DNA of 64,000 bases from a virus (lineage: Duplodnaviria > Caudoviricetes): IMG/VR virus record IMGVR_UViG_3300027971_000001; one strand, written 5' to 3'. The position numbers and the translations under genes are program-made. Below are positions 6,694 through 55,717 of the stretch, piece by piece. Positions within the stretch are counted from its first letter, which is position 1. Every line of letters begins with the position of its first letter. The notes beneath the pieces were generated by a model, which was given only the letters and a program-made list of their open reading frames with translations, was not told the DNA's origin and did not search any database.

Positions 6694-7163
6694 AGATTAT
6701 TATAGTAAATGGCGAACAATTTCAATCCCCGCTTTTGACGTTTCCTGGATTTTTTGTCGGCATCCTCTTTTAGTTGATATTCAAAAGCAAATATGATGTC
6801 ATCCAACACACTTCGCCATTCCTGTTCAGTTAATGATTCTGTATCTGGTCCGAAAATTACATCTGTTAATTCAGAAACAGTTCCATCCTTTCCATCTTTG
6901 TGAAATCGAATGCTGGTGCCATGAAAGTTGTTTCGCATCTTTTTCAAAGGAGGTAATATTTTACGGGCAATATACCATGCCACATTCCAAGGATCAGTTT
7001 CATTATACCCCCATACAATTTCCTGGATAAAATATTTTATACGGTGAAAAAAGGGTTTCACATACCAATTCCACAAACGGTTAAGAAATCCTATCTCAAC
7101 AATCTTGATGTTGTTCCGGTCCAGCATGTCTTTTATTTTTTGTTCGATTTCTGCCTGGTTCAT
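6684..7163 (-). CDS. Phage hypothetical protein
   Basis: ORF track; start moved to MNQAE, an ATGA overlap with the upstream ORF. Confidence 0.7.
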   Translation of the reverse strand: MNQAEIEQKIKDMLDRNNIKIVEIGFLNRLWNWYVKPFFHRIKYFIQEIVWGYNETDPWNVAWYIARKILPPLKKMRNNFHGTSIRFHKDGKDGTVSELTDVIFGPDTESLTEQEWRSVLDDIIFAFEYQLKEDADKKSRKRQKRGLKLFAIYYNNLWD

Positions 7164-7336
7164 TTTCTTTTGCGATGTTTGACCTTTTTCCAAATCTTTC
7201 CGTGCTTATCCAAATCAACGCTCCAAAGCATAAGTTTATTATAAATTGGATAACCAAAACCATCCCCCCAACGCATGATGGTACGGCTGATCATATCTCC
7301 TATGTGATACAGGATCGTGCTAACAACCAACTTCAT
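7160..7336 (-). CDS. Small hypothetical protein, 58 aa (not in ORF track)
   Basis: Manual translation MKLVVSTILYHIGD...KHRKRK; stop overlaps the next ATG. Confidence 0.5.
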   Translation of the reverse strand: MKLVVSTILYHIGDMISRTIMRWGDGFGYPIYNKLMLWSVDLDKHGKIWKKVKHRKRK

Positions 7337-7366
7337 TTTTATTTCCAGATGATACTGGAAAGAAGA

Positions 7367-7582
7367 TTATTTGTTAAAAACACTGACCAGCTTGGTCTTG
7401 ATGTCGTTGGTGTACTTGTGCAGGAACTTGTCGATTGCTGCATTGGCTGCATCAACTCCCTGTGTCTTTTCAATCGTCACTATTTGATCATGATCCAAGG
7501 TGACGCTGATTGAATCAGTTTTTGTTCCGTCTTTGATAAATCCAGTATCCAATGTTATTTTCATAATATTACTTACAAACAA
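7367..7582 (-). CDS. Hypothetical protein
   Basis: ORF track. Confidence 0.55.
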   Translation of the reverse strand: MFVSNIMKITLDTGFIKDGTKTDSISVTLDHDQIVTIEKTQGVDAANAAIDKFLHKYTNDIKTKLVSVFNK

Positions 7583-7691
7583 CTTTTAAAAAGCTAGTCT
7601 ATTTAATATATAATATTATGAGTTGTAAATGTTGCCATGGAATCAAGCTTAAGTGGTTGATTCCGTTTGTTTTACTAATTGCTGCAGTTTA

Positions 7692-7967
7692 TTATTTTGC
7701 CAAGTAATTGGCATGATCTTGCAGGGCATACTGAGCATCCCTTATCATTTCTGGTAGGGGATTCACTATCTCGTTATTCTCTTCATCCAATATGAGATAT
7801 AGTTTCACCTCGGCTTCATTTAATCCAACCTTAACATCTCCGTATGCGAAATAATTTTCATCATTGAATTTGAAAGAAGCTTTCAGTTCTTCAAAACTTT
7901 TGGGTTCTTTTGTTTCAACCTCATTCACCAACATTTGCCAATTCATCAGTTGTCTTGGTCTTCCCAA
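7692..7967 (-). CDS. Hypothetical protein
   Basis: ORF track. Confidence 0.55.
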   Translation of the reverse strand: MGRPRQLMNWQMLVNEVETKEPKSFEELKASFKFNDENYFAYGDVKVGLNEAEVKLYLILDEENNEIVNPLPEMIRDAQYALQDHANYLAK

Positions 7968-8299
7968 TTGAATTCTTTTTCCGGTCTGCCTTTTTCAAAA
8001 TGTCCAGCTTCTATTCCTCTTTCATTAGCGTCATCCCGAAGTGCTTCCTTGGCTTTAGTGATGATACCTTCATCCGGATATTCTATTTTTTGACCTATAT
8101 TTTTAGGTTTGGTTTCATCTCGGTCATAAATGTCCCATATTTCCACATCCCAATTATCCCAGTTCGTATCCTCTGTATCATAATCAACACTACCCACAAC
8201 AATGTAACGAAATCCCAAATAACGAAAAGGAACGGTTAAACCATCATGATGATAATCACTTTCATTCAGAATGTGTTTTACCAAATCATCAAACTTCAT
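7946..8299 (-). CDS. Hypothetical protein, possible internal head protein
   Basis: N-terminus MKFDDLVKHILNE. Confidence 0.65.
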   Translation of the reverse strand: MKFDDLVKHILNESDYHHDGLTVPFRYLGFRYIVVGSVDYDTEDTNWDNWDVEIWDIYDRDETKPKNIGQKIEYPDEGIITKAKEALRDDANERGIEAGHFEKGRPEKEFNWEDQDN

Positions 8300-8457
8300 T
8301 TTTTATCAAACTCCTTTTGCGCAACAAGTTTGTTGTATTGATTCATAACTTGTTGCAGATACTGACATTCCAACTGACCACCCAATCTTTTAATCACTTC
8401 TTCACACTCTTTCAAGTTCATGACATTAACTTTTTTCTTTTTTTTCTTTTCGGCCAT
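8296..8457 (-). CDS. Small basic hypothetical protein, 53 aa (not in ORF track)
   Basis: Manual translation MAEKRKKKKVNVMNL...; ATGA overlap with the next gene. Confidence 0.5.
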   Translation of the reverse strand: MAEKKKKKKVNVMNLKECEEVIKRLGGQLECQYLQQVMNQYNKLVAQKEFDKK

Positions 8458-8719
8458 ATAGTTATTTAATCTTTCTTGTCAAAATAAATACATCGCAACC
8501 GAACATGATATGGTCTGTGATCACATTCACAGAAATATTTATATATTATTTTTCTCGTTCCGTAAGCATCTGATCTGCAATCTTATATGCTTCAGCACAA
8601 GCACCTTCCGCATAACCCTTGTTAATGATAAGGGCATGTAAACTTAATATTGCAAATATATCCCGCAAATCACTATCATTACTCATACAGCTATCTATTA
8701 CTACCAACTAAGATATCAA

Positions 8720-8995
8720 TTATTTTTGTTCGGGGGATTCTATCGGAGCTTGTGGAGCAAGTTGCTTGGCAGTATTGATTGCATCCTGCAGATTCTTTAT
8801 GGATTGATTTATTTCACCGCTGTTCAGTTCCACCTGCGCTCCTTTTAAACGACCCAGTTCAACAAGAACAGCCCCTTCCAAGTGACCCAGAGCTTTGCCA
8901 AACTGAAGCATCTTTTGTGCTATTGCATCTGATTCATTCAGTACTCTACGACTGGATTCATATTTTGAAAACATATCCCGATCAGCTGTTCGCAT
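8720..8995 (-). CDS. Hypothetical late protein
   Basis: TATAAATA 5 nt upstream of the ATG. Confidence 0.65.
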   Translation of the reverse strand: MRTADRDMFSKYESSRRVLNESDAIAQKMLQFGKALGHLEGAVLVELGRLKGAQVELNSGEINQSIKNLQDAINTAKQLAPQAPIESPEQK

Positions 8996-46321: not shown

Positions 46322-49300
46322 TTATGCTTGAGCTTCAGTCCAAGATAATCGGGATTGTACAGGGATTGTTAAAGAAGTATTAAAACCACTGGAAAGTGGT
46401 GTTACTAATACGTGCAACACGTCAGGACCGTCTGGATATACGTCTTGTGCAGAGGATGAAACAAAATTGCTTATTCCACCTCCCAAAATACTGTTACCCA
46501 AATCTCTTACAACTGTAAGATCCTCAACCTGTCTGGGACCTGCTGCAAAAAATCCATAAATTGATTCACCACCGACTACTGAAACAGCAGCAGTTCCTGT
46601 ATAATAACTGATTTGTGCAAGGCTTGATCCTCCAATGGACTGCCAAGGATAATTGACAGGTCCTGCAGGAGTTAACAGTTTTCCATTCAAATTAAGTTCA
46701 ACACGAGCAATTGGATTATTGGATACATTATTAAACACAGGCAAACTAATATCCATGGATTGAAGTTTCAATTGCATTCTGTTGATCACTTCTTTAACTC
46801 CCAATGCACCAGTTCTTCCACTGTCAACACTAGGGGCAAGACGCAAACTCATAATAGCATTTCTTATTCCAGGAACTATAGATGTTGGAGCAGTATTTCC
46901 TGCATTAAATGAATAAGACAAATCATTATCAAATCTTCCATCCATGATAACACTGCTTCCCCAATGACTGATTACAGCTGCGGGTGTTCCTGAAATTGCA
47001 GGGGTTGTATTGTTAAGAGCTGCAAGTTCTATTACAACAGGAGCTGTTGGTGAATATGTGAATGTGGTTGCTACGGTTCCTCCAGCTTGTGCTCTGGTTA
47101 GTCCTGTGAATGTTGTGGCCGTTTTTCCTGTGTATGCAATATATTCAATTGCAGCGGATCCACTTGGGAATGTTGTAGCATCTGTTACACGCAATAATCC
47201 TGTTGATGGGAAATTGCTAGCATCGGCAACATTCATTGTGGTTGTTTCAGAACTGGCAAGTGTAGAAGCCAATGATGTTGAATTAAGGAAAGAATTTACT
47301 TCATATCGGGCCGGTAAATTTCCAGAACGGAAATATGCCTCGGTATTAACATTGTTATTAACCATTTTATGGCAATAACTGACATTTCCATTTGCAGATC
47401 TCATTCCCCATCTTATGAATCCTGCTCCATACCATGAGTAGTCAATATAAAGCATCTGCATTTTTGATAAGTCAACAGTATAACCACTTGGACCTGTTCC
47501 GTTAAATTTGTCAATGTTCCAAGCACTTTGAGGAACTTTAGTATCTATAGTTTTACTAACAACCGCAAACGATGGAGATACAATTGAAGGACCTCTGTAT
47601 TCAGGACTAATCAATAATTGCGTTTGACTTATAATGCTTGTTACGCGATAGCTGATTCCTTTTATTACAATAAAATCTCCGAACTTCAATTGATCAGCAA
47701 ATCTTGTATTTGTTCCGGTAACAATATTTTGTCCGCTTAATACGCTTACATTTCCTTGAATTTGATATGTACTGTTTCTACGAACAACATAAAGATTTTG
47801 TCCGTCAAATTCAAAAAATGCACCGTTTTGATTATCAAACATTCCAACACGAACAGTTCCATTATACCAAGAATTTGCTCCTGCAATTATAAAATTATTT
47901 CCGGATGCTGAAGCAGGAGAAGTTGGTGTTCCAGCAATAGTATATGTAAATGAAAGATCATTCGGAACCGAAGCAACTGTGAATATTCCGTTATAATCGG
48001 ATTGAGCAGCACCAGAAAGATAAATTTGAGATCCTGGAACCATTCCGTGAAGATTTTTTGTATTCACAGTTACCACCCCACCTGAATATGTGACTTGATC
48101 TAAATTGAAATTGGGCTTTAAAAGGGTTCCTGTGCTGAATTGAATTCCTTTTCCGGATTGATAACGGAAATATCTACGGGTTTGACGAATGTGTTGTGCA
48201 TTCGGTGTATAAGCTCCATTTGAAAATTGTATTCCACCATCATATGCACGATGAAGAGAGAACCCTGCAGGACGAGAATACACGCAATTTGCTGGTGAAG
48301 TTGTAACTGCGGTGCCTGTTCCAATTGCAACTGTAGGTGTATCATTTGCACTAAATGTGAATGATCTGGTATTTGGTGTTGTTAATACAACGTGAGAACC
48401 AGATGGTCCAGGTGAAGTTGCACAGTAAACGTTTGAAACGAAAATTAAATCGCCAACATACAAATTATGTGCTGAAACTGTAGTACAAGTGATTATACGA
48501 GGATCTGCCGGTGCTGCACCTGCATTAAAAGTAAAAGCTGTGCTATTTCCAGTATTCACCGGAATAGAAGCGCCAGAATAAAAACTACAAGGGAATGTTA
48601 AAGTTTTTGTGTAATCATAAATCGTTCCAGGTGCTATTGAATTTTTAACTGTATATTTGTATGCCGATGTATATCCAGGTCCTACCGTATAATATTCAGA
48701 TAGATAAAAACCGTTTGCATTATAATCTGTGGCATCCTGAACATAAATTACAACAGGATAATTATTTGTTCCGTATGATACTCCTCCTGTAGGAATGCTT
48801 CTATCAAAAAAACCACCAAAAACGGGTTGACCTGTTAACGATACAGACCTTGAACCGTTTGCGGAAAGTGACCAAGTATTGTTTGGTATAATAAACGGAG
48901 TTGTTGAATCATAAAAAACTGTTGGTTTATTATTCAGAAGTTGAACAAATTCCCATTTGGTGCTTTGTAACCCATATTCAAAATCGGTATCAATCAAAGA
49001 TTGTGGTTGGCTAACTCTGCTTTTGTTGACTGGATCAAAATATTCCTCTTGAGGAACAATTGCCATGGTAGGTGTATCGTAAATTACTTGAAGTTGATCC
49101 GCAGAATTATAACCTCCTGTTGTTGTATCCAATTGAAGTGTTAAAGTTTTTCCATTCGCATCCCATGTACCACCCAATCCCGATATGCTTTCTGCATAAA
49201 GAATATTGTTTGTTGTTTGATCTACAACAACCATCAACCTATTATTTGTAAAATTAGGAACAGCAGAGAAACTAAGTGTTTTTGTGCTGGGTGTAAAAAC

Positions 49301-49327
49301 CGGATTTGTTGTTAAAACAGATTTCAT
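46322..49327 (-). CDS. Large tail fibre/structural protein, paralog 3
   Basis: SLIDTDFEYG...RYQSGK...WYGAG...SHWG...SWTEAQ scaffold. Confidence 0.75.
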   Translation of the reverse strand: MKSVLTTNPVFTPSTKTLSFSAVPNFTNNRLMVVVDQTTNNILYAESISGLGGTWDANGKTLTLQLDTTTGGYNSADQLQVIYDTPTMAIVPQEEYFDPVNKSRVSQPQSLIDTDFEYGLQSTKWEFVQLLNNKPTVFYDSTTPFIIPNNTWSLSANGSRSVSLTGQPVFGGFFDRSIPTGGVSYGTNNYPVVIYVQDATDYNANGFYLSEYYTVGPGYTSAYKYTVKNSIAPGTIYDYTKTLTFPCSFYSGASIPVNTGNSTAFTFNAGAAPADPRIITCTTVSAHNLYVGDLIFVSNVYCATSPGPSGSHVVLTTPNTRSFTFSANDTPTVAIGTGTAVTTSPANCVYSRPAGFSLHRAYDGGIQFSNGAYTPNAQHIRQTRRYFRYQSGKGIQFSTGTLLKPNFNLDQVTYSGGVVTVNTKNLHGMVPGSQIYLSGAAQSDYNGIFTVASVPNDLSFTYTIAGTPTSPASASGNNFIIAGANSWYNGTVRVGMFDNQNGAFFEFDGQNLYVVRRNSTYQIQGNVSVLSGQNIVTGTNTRFADQLKFGDFIVIKGISYRVTSIISQTQLLISPEYRGPSIVSPSFAVVSKTIDTKVPQSAWNIDKFNGTGPSGYTVDLSKMQMLYIDYSWYGAGFIRWGMRSANGNVSYCHKMVNNNVNTEAYFRSGNLPARYEVNSFLNSTSLASTLASSETTTMNVADASNFPSTGLLRVTDATTFPSGSAAIEYIAYTGKTATTFTGLTRAQAGGTVATTFTYSPTAPVVIELAALNNTTPAISGTPAAVISHWGSSVIMDGRFDNDLSYSFNAGNTAPTSIVPGIRNAIMSLRLAPSVDSGRTGALGVKEVINRMQLKLQSMDISLPVFNNVSNNPIARVELNLNGKLLTPAGPVNYPWQSIGGSSLAQISYYTGTAAVSVVGGESIYGFFAAGPRQVEDLTVVRDLGNSILGGGISNFVSSSAQDVYPDGPDVLHVLVTPLSSGFNTSLTIPVQSRLSWTEAQA

Positions 49328-52352: not shown

Positions 52353-52623
52353 TAAGGTAAAGAGTTCCAGGGATGCAAAAAAATAACCATCCCAGATCAA
52401 AAAGAAATCCGGCAATAAACAAACTCAACCAAAAACTAATGCATATATGGCAACCGTTTAGTTTTGCCAGCAATGGATATTTTAATGAAAGATAATCTTG
52501 CAAAGGAATTTTTGTAAAAATTTGAAAATGTTCCTGAATAGGACTTTTAAACCATATAACCAAAAGGGTTTCAACAATCAAACCCGCAAGAAAAATTGAT
52601 TCAAGCAGCATTTTCCAAAACAA
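52333..52623 (-). CDS. DUF1360-like membrane protein
   Basis: LNGCHICISFW motif between TM helices. Confidence 0.55.
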   Translation of the reverse strand: MFWKMLLESIFLAGLIVETLLVIWFKSPIQEHFQIFTKIPLQDYLSLKYPLLAKLNGCHICISFWLSLFIAGFLFDLGWLFFCIPGTLYLINRKVF

Positions 52624-52846
52624 GATTTTTTTTGATTGCTTGAATAGTGTTGGTTCTTAAATTATTATGCATGCAAGGATAACATCCACCTTGCTTTTTC
52701 AAATTGGCATTGGCCGTGATATAATTGTTTCTTAACGATTGGCAATTCTGAATTTCACTTGGACAAGGTTCTTCCATAATGAAAAACTGGTTTATTATAT
52801 TATATTCCCGAACAATATCCATAAACTTATAATCCAAAAGTGGCAC
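52601..52846 (-). CDS. Small Cys-containing protein
   Basis: CPSEIQNC...GGCYPC. Confidence 0.55.
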   Translation of the reverse strand: MPLLDYKFMDIVREYNIINQFFIMEEPCPSEIQNCQSLRNNYITANANLKKQGGCYPCMHNNLRTNTIQAIKKNLVLENAA

Positions 52847-53912
52847 TAAATGCGCTAGTCAAAGTGGTAAATGTCTGAGTTACTGGATTATATTTTTTAA
52901 ATGCTATTGTATCAACATAAGCATCATACCCGTCATCCACATTGATAAATGTACCCGCATGTACAAATACATCTTTGCTATTTTCTCCTTGGAAAAATGC
53001 ATTATATGAAATGGGCAAGATGGTTTCCACTGCACTCAAAGCAGCCACAAGAATAGCATCTGTAGCTATCTTCATTCTTGAAGCATATGTCCCACCTTGA
53101 GTAGGAGATGCGGCAGTTAATGCATTTCTTGTGGTTCGGTTTGAATATAATGTATTAACAAGTGTATATTGTTGAAAATCATTAATAGTAAATTCTGCAC
53201 TAGGGAATGTTGGTGCGGTTGCACTCAAAGGACCAACGATTCGAGCTTGAGCTGCATTTACAGCTCCACATGTTTGGCTAAGATTTCCACCTTGACCTCG
53301 ACGCTTCATGAAACCTACTTGACCACTCTTTGTAATTCCAATATGAGGATGCACATATATGAACAATGCACCCGTTTCAGTTACGTGACTCATCCATGCG
53401 AAAAGACCAACTATTCCTGGGAAAGGATATCCACCAATTCCTCCTGCAAAGAATGGACCACTGAATTGTTGCAGAGATTCTGGATATTGCCCAAACGTGT
53501 TATTGGGGAATATGGGTGCATTTTTATCATCAGAACAAATACAAGCCGCCGTGATCACATCATCTGGGGTATAACCACAAAGAGTTTGTATAAATGTGGC
53601 ACATCTACTTCCAAATGTTTCTGCCAAAACAGCATTAGGATATGTAATTCTTACAGTGCTCGTATAAGCACTTTGATCGGCAGTAGCAGGTGATGTTTGG
53701 GTAGTATTGAATAAAGGAATATAATATGTTGCTCCATTGATCAAAACAGGCAATCCGGTAGAACCTTGGCTAATAGTTAGCCCAGTTGTGTAATTAGAAG
53801 CACTTGTCGGAAAACCGTATGTGCTATCAATTAAATTTTTAAAATCATTAGAAGAAGGTGTATGACCTGCTGAAAACGAATCGTATAGTGCATCTTTGCT
53901 TACAATTGACAT
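52827..53912 (-). CDS. LCIB/LCIC-family beta-carbonic anhydrase with N-terminal extension
   Basis: CICSDD...GPFFAGGIGGYPFPG...HPHIGI...RRGQ...TCGA; Cys/His/Cys zinc ligands. Confidence 0.78.
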   Translation of the reverse strand: MSIVSKDALYDSFSAGHTPSSNDFKNLIDSTYGFPTSASNYTTGLTISQGSTGLPVLINGATYYIPLFNTTQTSPATADQSAYTSTVRITYPNAVLAETFGSRCATFIQTLCGYTPDDVITAACICSDDKNAPIFPNNTFGQYPESLQQFSGPFFAGGIGGYPFPGIVGLFAWMSHVTETGALFIYVHPHIGITKSGQVGFMKRRGQGGNLSQTCGAVNAAQARIVGPLSATAPTFPSAEFTINDFQQYTLVNTLYSNRTTRNALTAASPTQGGTYASRMKIATDAILVAALSAVETILPISYNAFFQGENSKDVFVHAGTFINVDDGYDAYVDTIAFKKYNPVTQTFTTLTSAFSATFGL

Positions 53913-53920
53913 AATATTAT

Positions 53921-55717
53921 TTATGCAGGGGTTGGTGTTTCTCCACCTGTTGTTTCAGGTGTTTCTGGAGCTTCAGGTGCTTCTGGAGGAGCTTCCCCAC
54001 CGGCTTCAGGGGCTTCAGGGGCTGGTGTGGGTCCTCCTGGTGTTGGGCCAAATTCAGGAGGGGTTTCCGCTCCTCCACCTGCTTTTGGCTGCTTTTCACC
54101 ACTTTCAAACTGTTTACGCCAATCTGGACCTGCTCCTGAGATTTGATCAATCTCCCACTTGAGTTCGGCATCTTTACGAAGGAATTCACGATTGGCAAGA
54201 ACCATACGGTCAGTCCATCCCAAAATCTTCTTTTGCATGTAAATCTTGCTAATACTGTCATTATTAGTGATATTATTGAATCCTTCTGTACGCATCTGCA
54301 TTTTTTGCAATTCACGCATTTCATAAAAATTAGAGGGAACATTAAAAGTAAGATCAATATGATTCTCTTTCAAACCATACTCACTCCACATTCTTTTTAG
54401 TTTAAGATTTGTGATAAATCCATTCTTAAGACCATCAGCAAAACGAAGCTGTTGACGAATGATAAATTTGGAAAATTTAAGTTCTTCCCGAAGAATTTCT
54501 GTTCCATCCTTATATGTGTCTTCTGGATTCAAACGAGAAGAAGGAACTTTCAAACTTCTGTACAACTTTTTCATGAAGTACATTAAGTCATTCAATTCAC
54601 CCAGATTCTGACCACCTTGTAGTTGTGTTACATTGGTTCCTTCTTGACCAGTGCGCTTGGCAAACCAAAAACTATCTAACATGCTTTGTGGATTGAATTT
54701 CTGTACTGTTGCATCTTGACTGGAATCAAACGTTTTGCGATTCCAATACTGTTGCATGAGACGACGCATGTATCCTTCTGCTTTGGCCGGACTCATGTTT
54801 CCAACATCCACATTAAAAACAAGCTTTTCTGGAGCACGAACCAAACGATAAATTACAATACTATCTTCAATCAATGAAAGCTGGCGATAAGCTCGACGTG
54901 CATTTTCAAGAAAAGGAAGACGAACTGTTTTGTTTTCATTCCATATTCCGCTATTAATATAAGTTACCTGATTCTTATCCAAAGGAACGATTTGATAATC
55001 CACAACCTTAGTTGGATTTGTTTTATCAAAAATAGGTTTTCTTAAAACGAAACCTTTAACCAAAAGATTCTGCACATTTCCAAAAACAGGATCTATCAAC
55101 TCCGGAGGAATACTGACAACACCAAGAATACCTTCTTGGGGATAATCTCTATGAATGATATGCTCGAAATAAATTTCTGCATCCACAAGCAAATGACGGA
55201 AATATTCCCATCCCCTATGCTCTAATTCAAAAAGATTAATATAACGACGAAATTCCTTTTCAATTTCTTCTCTCTGAATATCTGTCAATTCAGAATCATG
55301 AAAACGCAGCTTTACAATTCTTCCTTCTTCATCGACATTTATAACTTCATCACAAATTTCATCCAATGCATCTGCAACTTCTGAAAAAGCTGCCATCGTT
55401 CTATAATCTCGGATTCTTGCTGCTTTATCTGATTGTATATTTGCATACAAATAAGTTGATAAACTGTTATCACTTGCAATTGCTCCAATGCTAGTTTCAT
55501 TTACGCTTGTGCTACTGCTTATACTATGTTTGGCAATTGCTTCTGTACGACGACTTCCAGTATCTTGAAAAAGAGAGAACTTAGGATTTAGTTGGGACAA
55601 AACATCAACAACAGAATAATTGTTGTATGGAAGACGTTCACTTATAAACTTTTGCAACCCACGACCAAAAGTTGTTGATCCACGATCATTTGTGGATGAG
55701 TAATCCGGTTGAGCCAT
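53921..55717 (-). CDS. gp20: Portal protein, T4 gp20-like
   Basis: EVADALDEICDE, LSLIEDSIVIYRLVRAPEKLVFNVDVGN, DSFWFAKR, LYRSLKVPSSRL, REELKFSKFI. Confidence 0.95.
   Translation of the reverse strand: MAQPDYSSTNDRGSTTFGRGLQKFISERLPYNNYSVVDVLSQLNPKFSLFQDTGSRRTEAIAKHSISSSTSVNETSIGAIASDNSLSTYLYANIQSDKAARIRDYRTMAAFSEVADALDEICDEVINVDEEGRIVKLRFHDSELTDIQREEIEKEFRRYINLFELEHRGWEYFRHLLVDAEIYFEHIIHRDYPQEGILGVVSIPPELIDPVFGNVQNLLVKGFVLRKPIFDKTNPTKVVDYQIVPLDKNQVTYINSGIWNENKTVRLPFLENARRAYRQLSLIEDSIVIYRLVRAPEKLVFNVDVGNMSPAKAEGYMRRLMQQYWNRKTFDSSQDATVQKFNPQSMLDSFWFAKRTGQEGTNVTQLQGGQNLGELNDLMYFMKKLYRSLKVPSSRLNPEDTYKDGTEILREELKFSKFIIRQQLRFADGLKNGFITNLKLKRMWSEYGLKENHIDLTFNVPSNFYEMRELQKMQMRTEGFNNITNNDSISKIYMQKKILGWTDRMVLANREFLRKDAELKWEIDQISGAGPDWRKQFESGEKQPKAGGGAETPPEFGPTPGGPTPAPEAPEAGGEAPPEAPEAPETPETTGGETPTPA

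Follow-up and report, generated by a model that had tools for sequence, protein, structure and literature searches.

The subject of this analysis is a 64,000-nucleotide (nt) stretch of DNA, hereafter the window, from an uncultured freshwater T4-like phage (IMG/VR record IMGVR_UViG_3300027971_000001), and in particular an LCIB-type carbonic anhydrase (CA) gene located at positions 52827-53912. The gene is an uninterrupted open reading frame (ORF) of 361 codons. The original prediction had placed an ORF at this position with no strand given; the ORF and its product of 361 amino acids (aa) were found to be real, and the strand is minus. A plus-strand reading was ruled out by the stop codons found throughout the plus-strand frame across 52827-53912. 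The gene had also been placed directly behind the portal gene, and a T4 gp20-type portal gene, matched by both Pfam and phrog_213, was indeed found immediately upstream on the same strand, with an intergenic gap of 8 nt. The gene, the parts of its product and its upstream border are as follows.

52827-53912, minus strand: the whole LCIB-type gene (product P0001), stop codon included, from the ORF list and its translation; Pfam PF18599, E 2.9e-25
53709-53912, minus strand: N-terminal module, residues 1-68, two short helices and a beta-hairpin; from the alignment and a ratio of nonsynonymous to synonymous substitution rates (dN/dS) of 0.15-0.23
53667-53708, minus strand: Thr/Ser/Pro-rich linker, residues 69-82; low predicted local distance difference test score (pLDDT) and 21-64% identity between relatives
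52830-53666, minus strand: LCIB/theta-CA-fold core, residues 83-361; AlphaFold2 pLDDT 80-95, Foldseek matches and dN/dS 0.03-0.10
53918-53923, minus strand: TAAATA box of the late-promoter type, overlapping the portal stop codon and ending 5 nt before the ATG
53921-55717, minus strand: T4 gp20-type portal gene; Pfam Portal_T4, 9.5e-105; phrog_213, 3.4e-108

P0001 was found to match the Pfam family LCIB_C_CA (PF18599) over residues 111-263 with 89.3 bits, against a gathering cut-off of 25 bits, as had been expected of it. Comparison by phmmer and by a family profile with solved LCIB-family chains gave matches to 6kfs (4.9e-27) and PtLCIB4 (5b5y, 1.3e-24), and further matches by sequence to 9vzj, LCIC (5b5x) and LCIB (5k5w). 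In an AlphaFold2 model computed with 22 homologues as input, residues 80-361 had a pLDDT of mostly 80-95 and residues 1-77 were poor. When the model was compared with the PDB by Foldseek, the top eight matches were all LCIB-family structures, aligned over about 270 columns with template modelling scores (TMt) of 0.69-0.84, including PtLCIB4 (E 4e-13, TMt 0.80) and 6kfs (TMt 0.84); the modelled fold is thus the one that the original prediction had named. By comparison, canonical beta-CAs (CcaA, Can2 and others) appeared in the Foldseek search with E values of 0.03-0.8 and TM scores of 0.3-0.5, none of which is significant, and a Pfam scan of P0001 returned no match to PF00484, the canonical beta-CA family. 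The first-ligand motif reads C-S-D-D-K, with V or I instead of K in relatives, and is without the canonical CxDxR Arg at +4. A canonical beta-CA of the PF00484 type was therefore rejected, given the absence of CxDxR and of a PF00484 match and the Foldseek E values above 0.02.

Active-site residues were located by aligning the family profile to PtLCIB4 (5b5y) and to the deposited variants, and the ligand codons were checked in the DNA; residue roles were taken from PDB mutant entries and two reviews. The counts of invariance cover 53 sequences of a phage clade described below, which diverge to about 34% identity, and 89 cellular homologues.

53535-53537, minus strand: Cys126 codon, predicted first Zn ligand (CSDD), equivalent to PtLCIB4 C46; invariant in 53 of 53 phage-clade sequences
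Ser127, equivalent to PtLCIB4 S47, the position changed in entry 5b60 (S47R)
53529-53531, minus strand: Asp128 codon, equivalent to PtLCIB4 D48, the catalytic Asp; invariant in 53 of 53
53385-53387, minus strand: His176 codon, equivalent to PtLCIB4 H88, changed in entry 5b5z (H88A); invariant in 53 of 53
53343-53345, minus strand: His190 codon, predicted second Zn ligand (PHIG), equivalent to PtLCIB4 H102; invariant in 53 of 53
53301-53303, minus strand: Arg204 codon (RRG motif), equivalent to PtLCIB4 R116; invariant in 53 of 53 phage-clade and 89 of 89 cellular sequences
53268-53270, minus strand: Cys215 codon, predicted third Zn ligand (TCGA), equivalent to PtLCIB4 C126; invariant in 53 of 53

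All three Zn ligands predicted from the CSDD, PHIG and TCGA motifs therefore align with the ligands of PtLCIB4. Of the 53 phage-clade sequences, 45 have Ser and 8 have Ala at position 127, and none has the Arg of the PtLCIB4 S47R variant. The His and Arg that correspond to H176 and R204 have been described as important in the active site of CrLCIB/LCIC (PMC5876011). Judged from its sequence and its modelled structure, P0001 is almost certainly a true member of the LCIB family with an intact active site, and the residues retained make activity on CO2 or a close analogue, on balance, probable.

A word-based search identified 52 metagenome homologues of P0001, all of which carry PF18599, and an exhaustive profile search identified 1126 family members. 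About 20 clusters (50% identity) matched the profile end to end with 224-473 bits, while long multi-domain proteins and proteins of 230-270 aa were found below a clear score step. In a scan of IMG/VR, relatives with 34-96% identity were found on 61 viral contigs. A FastTree tree was computed from 142 sequences, and in it all 37 rows from viral contigs and 16 unlabelled representatives formed one clade with a support of 100 on a stem of 1.08 substitutions per site; in a second tree, computed by IQ-TREE from 82 rows, a single branch with a Shimodaira-Hasegawa-like approximate likelihood ratio test (SH-aLRT) value of 100 split the phage-type rows from the cellular ones; the unlabelled representatives were called phage-type by clade, and those looked up lie on contigs too short to classify. 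The comparison with bacterial LCIB homologues suggested at the outset thus left the phage clade separate in both trees, with the cellular relatives outside it. The nearest tree neighbours of the clade are a contig of a Chitinophagaceae metagenome-assembled genome and metagenome proteins, one of them in a bacterial chromosome context.

Beyond the tree, the clade is marked by an insertion that follows the first ligand motif.

53472-53516, minus strand: insertion specific to the phage clade, residues about 133-147; G141 invariant in 53 of 53 sequences, Q142 present in 52 of 53

The insertion is 8-10 residues long and the alignment is gapped at G141 in 86 and at Q142 in 85 of the 89 cellular homologues; the model has low pLDDT at residues 130-139. 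D129 is also invariant in the phage clade, and position 132 is Ala or Gly in the clade (A132 in P0001) as opposed to Arg, Ser or His in many cellular members. No match to P0001 was found in PHROGs, nor by tblastn against 50,697 deposited phage records, and a megablast search of the 8-kb region for known viral relatives was negative. A fold search of BFVD found no LCIB-type viral protein, the best match being a Pandoravirus beta-CA with a non-significant E value of 0.04, and a literature search found no paper on a phage LCIB branch. The DNA was found in 18 freshwater runs from 16 studies; the branch is common in lakes and was also found in one Tara ocean sample. On these sequence comparisons, the clade is a monophyletic, phage-only and previously undescribed branch of the LCIB family.

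Homologues of P0001 agree from about residue 83 onwards, and before residue 83 they are entirely different between lineages. Within the sub-lineage of the window (74-96% identity), residues 1-68 are well conserved, with conserved positions M1, L9, F13, P19, D23, F24, L27, I28, D29, T62, Y63 and Y64. Since dN/dS was 0.03-0.10 for the core, 0.15-0.23 for the N-terminal module and 0.25-1.3 for the linker, the protein is built of an N-terminal domain under constraint, a linker that evolves freely and an enzyme-type domain under much stronger constraint. The original prediction had divided the protein into an N-terminal extension and an LCIB part from about residue 100 to 361; this division stands, with the core now beginning at residue 83 and the extension found to be under purifying selection. 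The further suggestion that the first 80 or so residues look like a virion-protein N-terminus found no direct support; the module has no detectable relative and a fold of low confidence. BLAST and phmmer searches of the window with residues 1-85 gave only one weak match, to a 1001-aa protein (E 0.007); a motif scan for relatives of the same residues returned nothing, and a word-based protein search with them returned only close LCIB homologues. A hidden Markov model of the module found no relatives beyond LCIB proteins in any of the fetched loci, and in four related IMG/VR records the module profile matched one copy each, always in the LCIB gene. An hhalign comparison with the shared modules of other lineages (see below) was not significant, ESM Atlas feature scores for the module (0.76) were below the useful range, and an AlphaFold2 model of the module alone (pLDDT about 55) was too poor for a fold search. 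No T4-type capsid-targeting leader was found. Because there is no Glu in residues 1-97, there is no L/I-x-E prohead-protease site near the N-terminus, and the first L-A-E (residues 96-98) falls within the folded core.

On the coding strand, the junction of the portal and LCIB genes reads GCA-TAA-ATA-ATATT-ATG, so that the TAAATA motif overlapping the portal stop codon is present at 53923-53918 as had been described. The same motif was found no more than 20 nt upstream of the start codon in 19 of the 83 genes of the window, compared with 0.7 expected from its density, and its distance to the start codon in these 19 genes is 2-11 nt. Besides the LCIB gene, the genes that carry it include the portal gene, the gene of the 1001-aa virion protein and the two largest fibre genes; examples of minus-strand starts with the motif are 25277, 32443, 49327, 51878, 53912 and 55717. 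By comparison, Shine-Dalgarno-like motifs were found ahead of only 7 of the 83 genes. The GC content of the window is 35.7%. A (T)ATAAATA box was also found at the LCIB gene of many other lineages, 4-6 nt ahead of its start codon. In a sister group (group B), the stop codon of the major capsid protein (MCP) gene is followed by a perfect GAGGCCC-GAAA-GGGCCTC hairpin with a T7 run, an ATAAATA box and the LCIB ATG, in that order.

L021:7916-8002: perfect hairpin GAGGCCC-GAAA-GGGCCTC and T7 in the MCP-LCIB intergenic region; likewise in L005, L019, L020, L022 and L025

The hairpin of L021 was read directly from the sequence and was not reported by a consensus terminator scan. The LCIB gene thus behaves as a self-contained late cassette, with a promoter box of its own and, in this sister group, a terminator ahead of it. 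The late-type box at the start of the gene in the window is likewise consistent with late expression, as originally predicted. In four lake metatranscriptome libraries, contigs of 156-210 nt inside the gene were found at 96-100% identity, which indicates presence in RNA libraries only; for the 4-kb stretch around the gene, no RNA datasets were listed.

The position of the gene among its relatives was examined next to that in the window. Single-copy LCIB genes always lie on the same strand as the neighbouring structural gene. The LCIB gene directly follows the portal gene in 13 loci (the window and 12 close relatives), directly follows the MCP gene in eight relatives (77-80% identity) and, in three distant loci, is found no more than 2 kb downstream of the MCP gene. 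It was also found downstream of a major head protein (L041-46), after a homologue of the baseplate-wedge connector (L004, L030 and L032), between collagen-like tail-fibre genes (L047-58) and, in a Tara ocean contig (L007), in the order gp15, LCIB, BspA-type leucine-rich-repeat (LRR) protein. BspA-type LRR proteins (Pfam LRR_5, up to 8e-88) adjoin the LCIB gene at L007:26-3584, at L001:9187-13944 and in L004; these proteins may be virion adhesins. Ten loci (L002, L003 and L033-L040) carry two diverged LCIB paralogues 4-9 bp apart, for example the following.

L035:7602-9668: tandem LCIB pair
L037:6859-8921: tandem LCIB pair

Each pair consists of a long copy (361-406 aa) with an N-terminal extension and a short copy (285-314 aa) without one. 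No active-site residue is lost from either copy, and in the tree the long copies group apart from the short ones, each in a clade of their own. By analogy with LCIB/LCIC, such a pair may form a hetero-oligomer.

Two other genes of the window were noted. A minus-strand ORF of about 73 aa at 52601-52822 begins 5 nt past the LCIB stop codon; its product has four Cys residues in a zinc-ribbon-like CPx6C...CxxC pattern, it is conserved in position in the closest relatives (L008-L010) and it matched no family. The 1001-aa virion structural protein is encoded at 46322-49327 on the minus strand and corresponds to phrog_5838.

N-terminal modules shared with neighbouring proteins were found in two other lineages. 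In group 1 (L051, L053, L055, L057 and L068), the LCIB protein shares its first 30-65 residues, with 63-90% identity, with mini-proteins of 67-73 aa that consist of the module alone, with proteins of 120-211 aa and with a repeat-rich protein of 776 aa, residues 391-772 of which are similar to the tail-spike protein annotated in Flavobacterium phages and to the tail-fibre protein of one Verrucomicrobia phage. The module of this group ends in a hairpin-like G-x-(I/M)-F-Y-S-S-S-G-x-F-Y motif. The module-only genes that adjoin the LCIB gene are listed here.

L051:6621-6830: module-only gene of the 67-73-aa class
L053:5678-5881: module-only gene of the same class
L055:158-367: module-only gene of the same class
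L057:652-873: module-only gene of the same class

Their products may act as anchor-only competitors or caps at the same docking site. In group 2 (L047-54 and L058), the LCIB protein and neighbours of 122-627 aa carry a 45-residue module (MKKRAFVRYSKQGKIVPGSLIL...CC) at the N-terminus, in the following clusters.

L052:7845-10569: group 2 module cluster
L054:7842-9886: group 2 module cluster
L058:4726-8819: group 2 module cluster

Within one gene cluster, at least six unrelated proteins of 122-627 aa have the 45-residue module (KRAFVRYSKQGKIVPGSLIL...W.EV....CC) at the N-terminus, and one neighbour carries it as a tandem double copy. Neither PHROG nor Pfam families matched the proteins that carry the group 2 module. 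Sharing of the N-terminal module was thus found in two lineages, and in the lineage of the window the module was found on LCIB proteins only.

Cellular relatives of P0001 were identified by scanning a single genome of each prokaryotic species for sequence motifs. They show 23-41% identity and nearly all belong to Bacteroidota and Balneolota, a taxonomic skew that is partly built in, as the patterns used favour Bacteroidota-like sequences. These proteins are about 245 aa long and lack both an extension and a signal peptide; the group closest to the phages has CSDD-VN-S/A in common with them. In eight Bacteroidota loci, the LCIB homologue directly follows a bestrophin-type channel gene, the end of which touches or overlaps its start.

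L071, L077, L079, L080, L081, L082, L083 and L087, at about 6950-8750 in each: bestrophin-LCIB pairs; Bestrophin_2 about 1e-44, 328-335 aa

The genomes with this pair are those of Flectobacillus, Saprospiraceae, Sphingobacteriales, Flavobacterium caeni, Kapaibacterium, Aureispira, Chitinophagaceae and Chitinophaga. Because they adjoin a bestrophin-type anion channel gene, the nearest named cellular relatives are real inorganic-carbon genes. In Chlamydomonas, a bicarbonate route links LCIB to BST1-3 (PMC9614477), and the bacterial pair parallels this BST/LCIB pairing. No bestrophin or other transporter partner was found in any phage LCIB locus examined.

With regard to the host, the portal and the 1001-aa virion protein have their best matches in cyanomyoviruses, the latter with about 41% identity over 91% of its length to virion structural proteins of the marine Synechococcus myoviruses S-RSM4 and S-PM2. 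A search for psbA (PF00124) found it absent from all 10 of 10 LCIB-carrying phage records, three of them complete. The idea of a cyanophage host is weakened by this absence in ten relatives. To judge from these sequences, the lineage is related to cyanomyoviruses and is probably not a cyanophage one. A Bacteroidota host is hinted at, and no more than that, by the small number of Shine-Dalgarno motifs, by the relatives in Bacteroidota and by the similarity to a Flavobacterium phage spike.

Taking these observations together, the best reading of the gene is that it encodes an enzyme domain made late and mounted on the virion by a lineage-specific anchor, with a probability of about 0.5 and with part of the argument made by analogy. 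P0001 would be a late-expressed protein of three parts, with residues 1-68 as the N-terminal module, 69-82 as a flexible linker and 83-361 as the LCIB/theta-type CA domain. The CA domain would bind Zn through C126, H190 and C215, use D128, R204 and H176 as PtLCIB4 does and catalyse CO2 hydration or bicarbonate dehydration, probably as a dimer like other beta-CA folds. The N-terminal module would dock on the virion, at the periphery of the head or neck in this phage and at the fibre or spike apparatus in others, such that the particle would carry the enzyme domain much as branched tail-spike systems hang varied enzyme heads on a common anchor. The phage might benefit from a change of pH, CO2 or bicarbonate at the surface of the host or, after delivery, from an action on the inorganic-carbon system of the host. 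This reading is favoured by the invariant active site, the purifying selection on the core, the late box, the placement in structural clusters, the sharing of modules and the constraint on the N-terminal module. The main reason for favouring virion attachment is that the shared modules look like exchangeable heads on a common anchor; these belong to other lineages, and by analogy with them virion association of the protein in the window's own lineage is given an even or slightly better than even chance. The narrower proposal of an active CA that is displayed on or delivered from the virion and, on infection, alters pH or the levels of CO2 or bicarbonate either at the host envelope or inside it is possible yet doubtful; such a virion-borne enzyme might act on, or mimic, a bestrophin-LCIB bicarbonate system of the host.

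Several observations weigh against a virion-mounted enzyme. The N-terminal module of the window lineage is on no other protein, unlike the shared modules of the other lineages. The tandem pairs lie in mixed or non-structural neighbourhoods (ATPase, HNH endonucleases, RNA ligase and FMN reductase), and, as their short copies have no N-terminal extension, the domain evidently can work anchor-free. The Arg of the cellular 'VNRP/VTRP' motif is missing (A132) and the phage clade has an insertion of its own, while its stem branch is long enough for a change of function to have been possible. Chlamydomonas LCIB and LCIC keep the same ligands and have no in-vitro CA activity (PMC5876011, PMC9614477). 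Finally, none of the deposited records searched by tblastn provides the gene in a cultured phage.

A soluble, cytoplasmic CA that serves as a late auxiliary metabolic enzyme and speeds the interconversion of CO2 and bicarbonate in the infected cell is considered unlikely. Such an enzyme could feed carbamoyl-phosphate and purine synthesis or anaplerotic carboxylation, could buffer pH or, in a CO2-concentrating host, could dissipate the bicarbonate pool; in that case the variable N-termini would have a role in oligomerisation or localisation rather than in virion attachment. The intact and strongly conserved active site fits this explanation, as do the nearest named cellular relatives, which are cytoplasmic proteins of about 245 aa encoded beside a bestrophin-type gene; the tandem pairs among non-structural genes, with their extension-free short copies, and the self-contained cassette of group B, with its own promoter and upstream terminator, point the same way. 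However, the late box is identical to that of the structural genes, the gene has been inserted repeatedly on the same strand beside portal, MCP, gp15, baseplate and fibre genes, and no bestrophin or transporter accompanies it in the phage loci. N-terminal modules common to fibre- or spike-like neighbours in two lineages, and the constraint on the module in the window, also speak for an anchor. With respect to an origin as a host-derived auxiliary metabolic gene, cellular homologues exist but reach at most 41% identity and fall outside the long-stemmed phage clade, and the copy in the window has a late box and lies among head genes; the lineages with tandem pairs, on the other hand, do have the gene among non-structural ones.

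If the fold had been co-opted as a non-catalytic structural, adhesive or receptor-binding virion head, with zinc as a structural ion, the long stem, the clade-specific insertion and the loss of the cellular Arg at position 132 would be accounted for; CrLCIB/LCIC, for which non-catalytic action has been proposed, also keep the Zn site with no in-vitro activity (PMC5876011; PMC9614477), and BspA-type LRR proteins and fibres are adhesin-like neighbours. Yet Asp128, His176 and Arg204 are invariant beyond the three ligands, Ser or Ala is kept at position 127, and the core (dN/dS 0.03-0.10) is far more conserved than the anchor, whereas receptor-binding heads normally vary fast. A non-catalytic head is therefore improbable, and a CA fold serving as mere decoration is less likely than the original prediction had implied, given that the ligands and the catalytic Asp, His and Arg are invariant clade-wide. 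Still less probable, and indeed very improbable, is a head cargo of the kind known from T4 Alt and the internal proteins, which the N-terminus would direct into the prohead and which would leave it together with the DNA, so that the enzyme could act in the host from the very first minute of infection. A gene that adjoins the portal or MCP gene and has a late-type box would suit such a cargo, but P0001 has no T4-type leader, with no Glu before its core and its first LAE (96-98) inside it; its N-terminal module is a constrained domain of 68 residues with a linker and not a tag of 10 residues, and the shared modules of group 1 belong to fibre- or spike-like proteins.

What is new here is a phage-only LCIB branch of at least 61 viral contigs and about 20 clusters (50% identity), found mostly in virion gene clusters. 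If the protein is both active and virion-borne, inorganic-carbon chemistry would be added to the activities carried by phage particles, and P0001 would represent the first inorganic-carbon enzyme as a virion component, with an enzyme domain exchangeable across head-, neck- and fibre-type anchors within a widespread clade of freshwater phages. If it is cytoplasmic, freshwater phages would have in this branch a carbon-related auxiliary gene of a new class. Moreover, the bestrophin-LCIB pair of Bacteroidota provides a bacterial model for the BST/LCIB module of Chlamydomonas, and the phage LCIB protein itself is small and soluble-looking.

LCIB-type CAs are known from the CO2-concentrating mechanisms of algae and diatoms and from a few bacterial homologues. 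The phage protein shares with PtLCIB4 and PtLCIB3 of Phaeodactylum tricornutum (5b5y) the fold, the Cys-His-Cys ligands, the Asp, the Ser at S47, the His at H88 and the Arg of RRG. It differs from PtLCIB4, to which it has about 19% identity, in its 68-aa N-terminal module and linker, its insertion of 8-10 residues, DD in place of DE and Ala in place of the Arg of 'VTRP', and in being phage-encoded under a late promoter. PtLCIB3 and PtLCIB4 have been reported to be constitutively active CAs (PMC9614477). Chlamydomonas LCIB-LCIC belongs to the same family, and the phage tandem paralogues of ten loci resemble its hetero-oligomer by analogy; however, the Chlamydomonas proteins have an Arg next to the first Cys and no in-vitro activity, whereas the phage proteins have Ser or Ala and the gene in the window is single-copy. 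The Bacteroidota LCIB homologues, the nearest named cellular relatives, share CSDD-VN-S/A without Arg and a GG-x-GYP-x-TG motif, but have neither the N-terminal module nor the GQ insertion and are found in a chromosomal context with a transporter partner.

As regards the proposed arrangement on the virion, branched tail-spike and fibre systems combine a common anchor with exchangeable enzymatic heads, as in CBA120 TSP1-4 and G7C gp63.1/gp66, and T4 Hoc is a known decoration protein. The known heads of such systems are glycanases, lyases, esterases and Ig-like domains; in the literature searched, no description of a CA-fold virion head was found. With these systems and T4 Hoc the phage LCIB proteins would share the order of anchor, linker and head, the exchange or sharing of N-terminal modules, the location in structural clusters and the late expression. 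Viral CAs from metagenomes and giant viruses have been described in the alpha, beta and gamma classes and treated as auxiliary metabolic genes (bioRxiv 10.64898/2026.01.21.700432). These too are virus-encoded CA genes, but they belong to CA classes other than the LCIB type.

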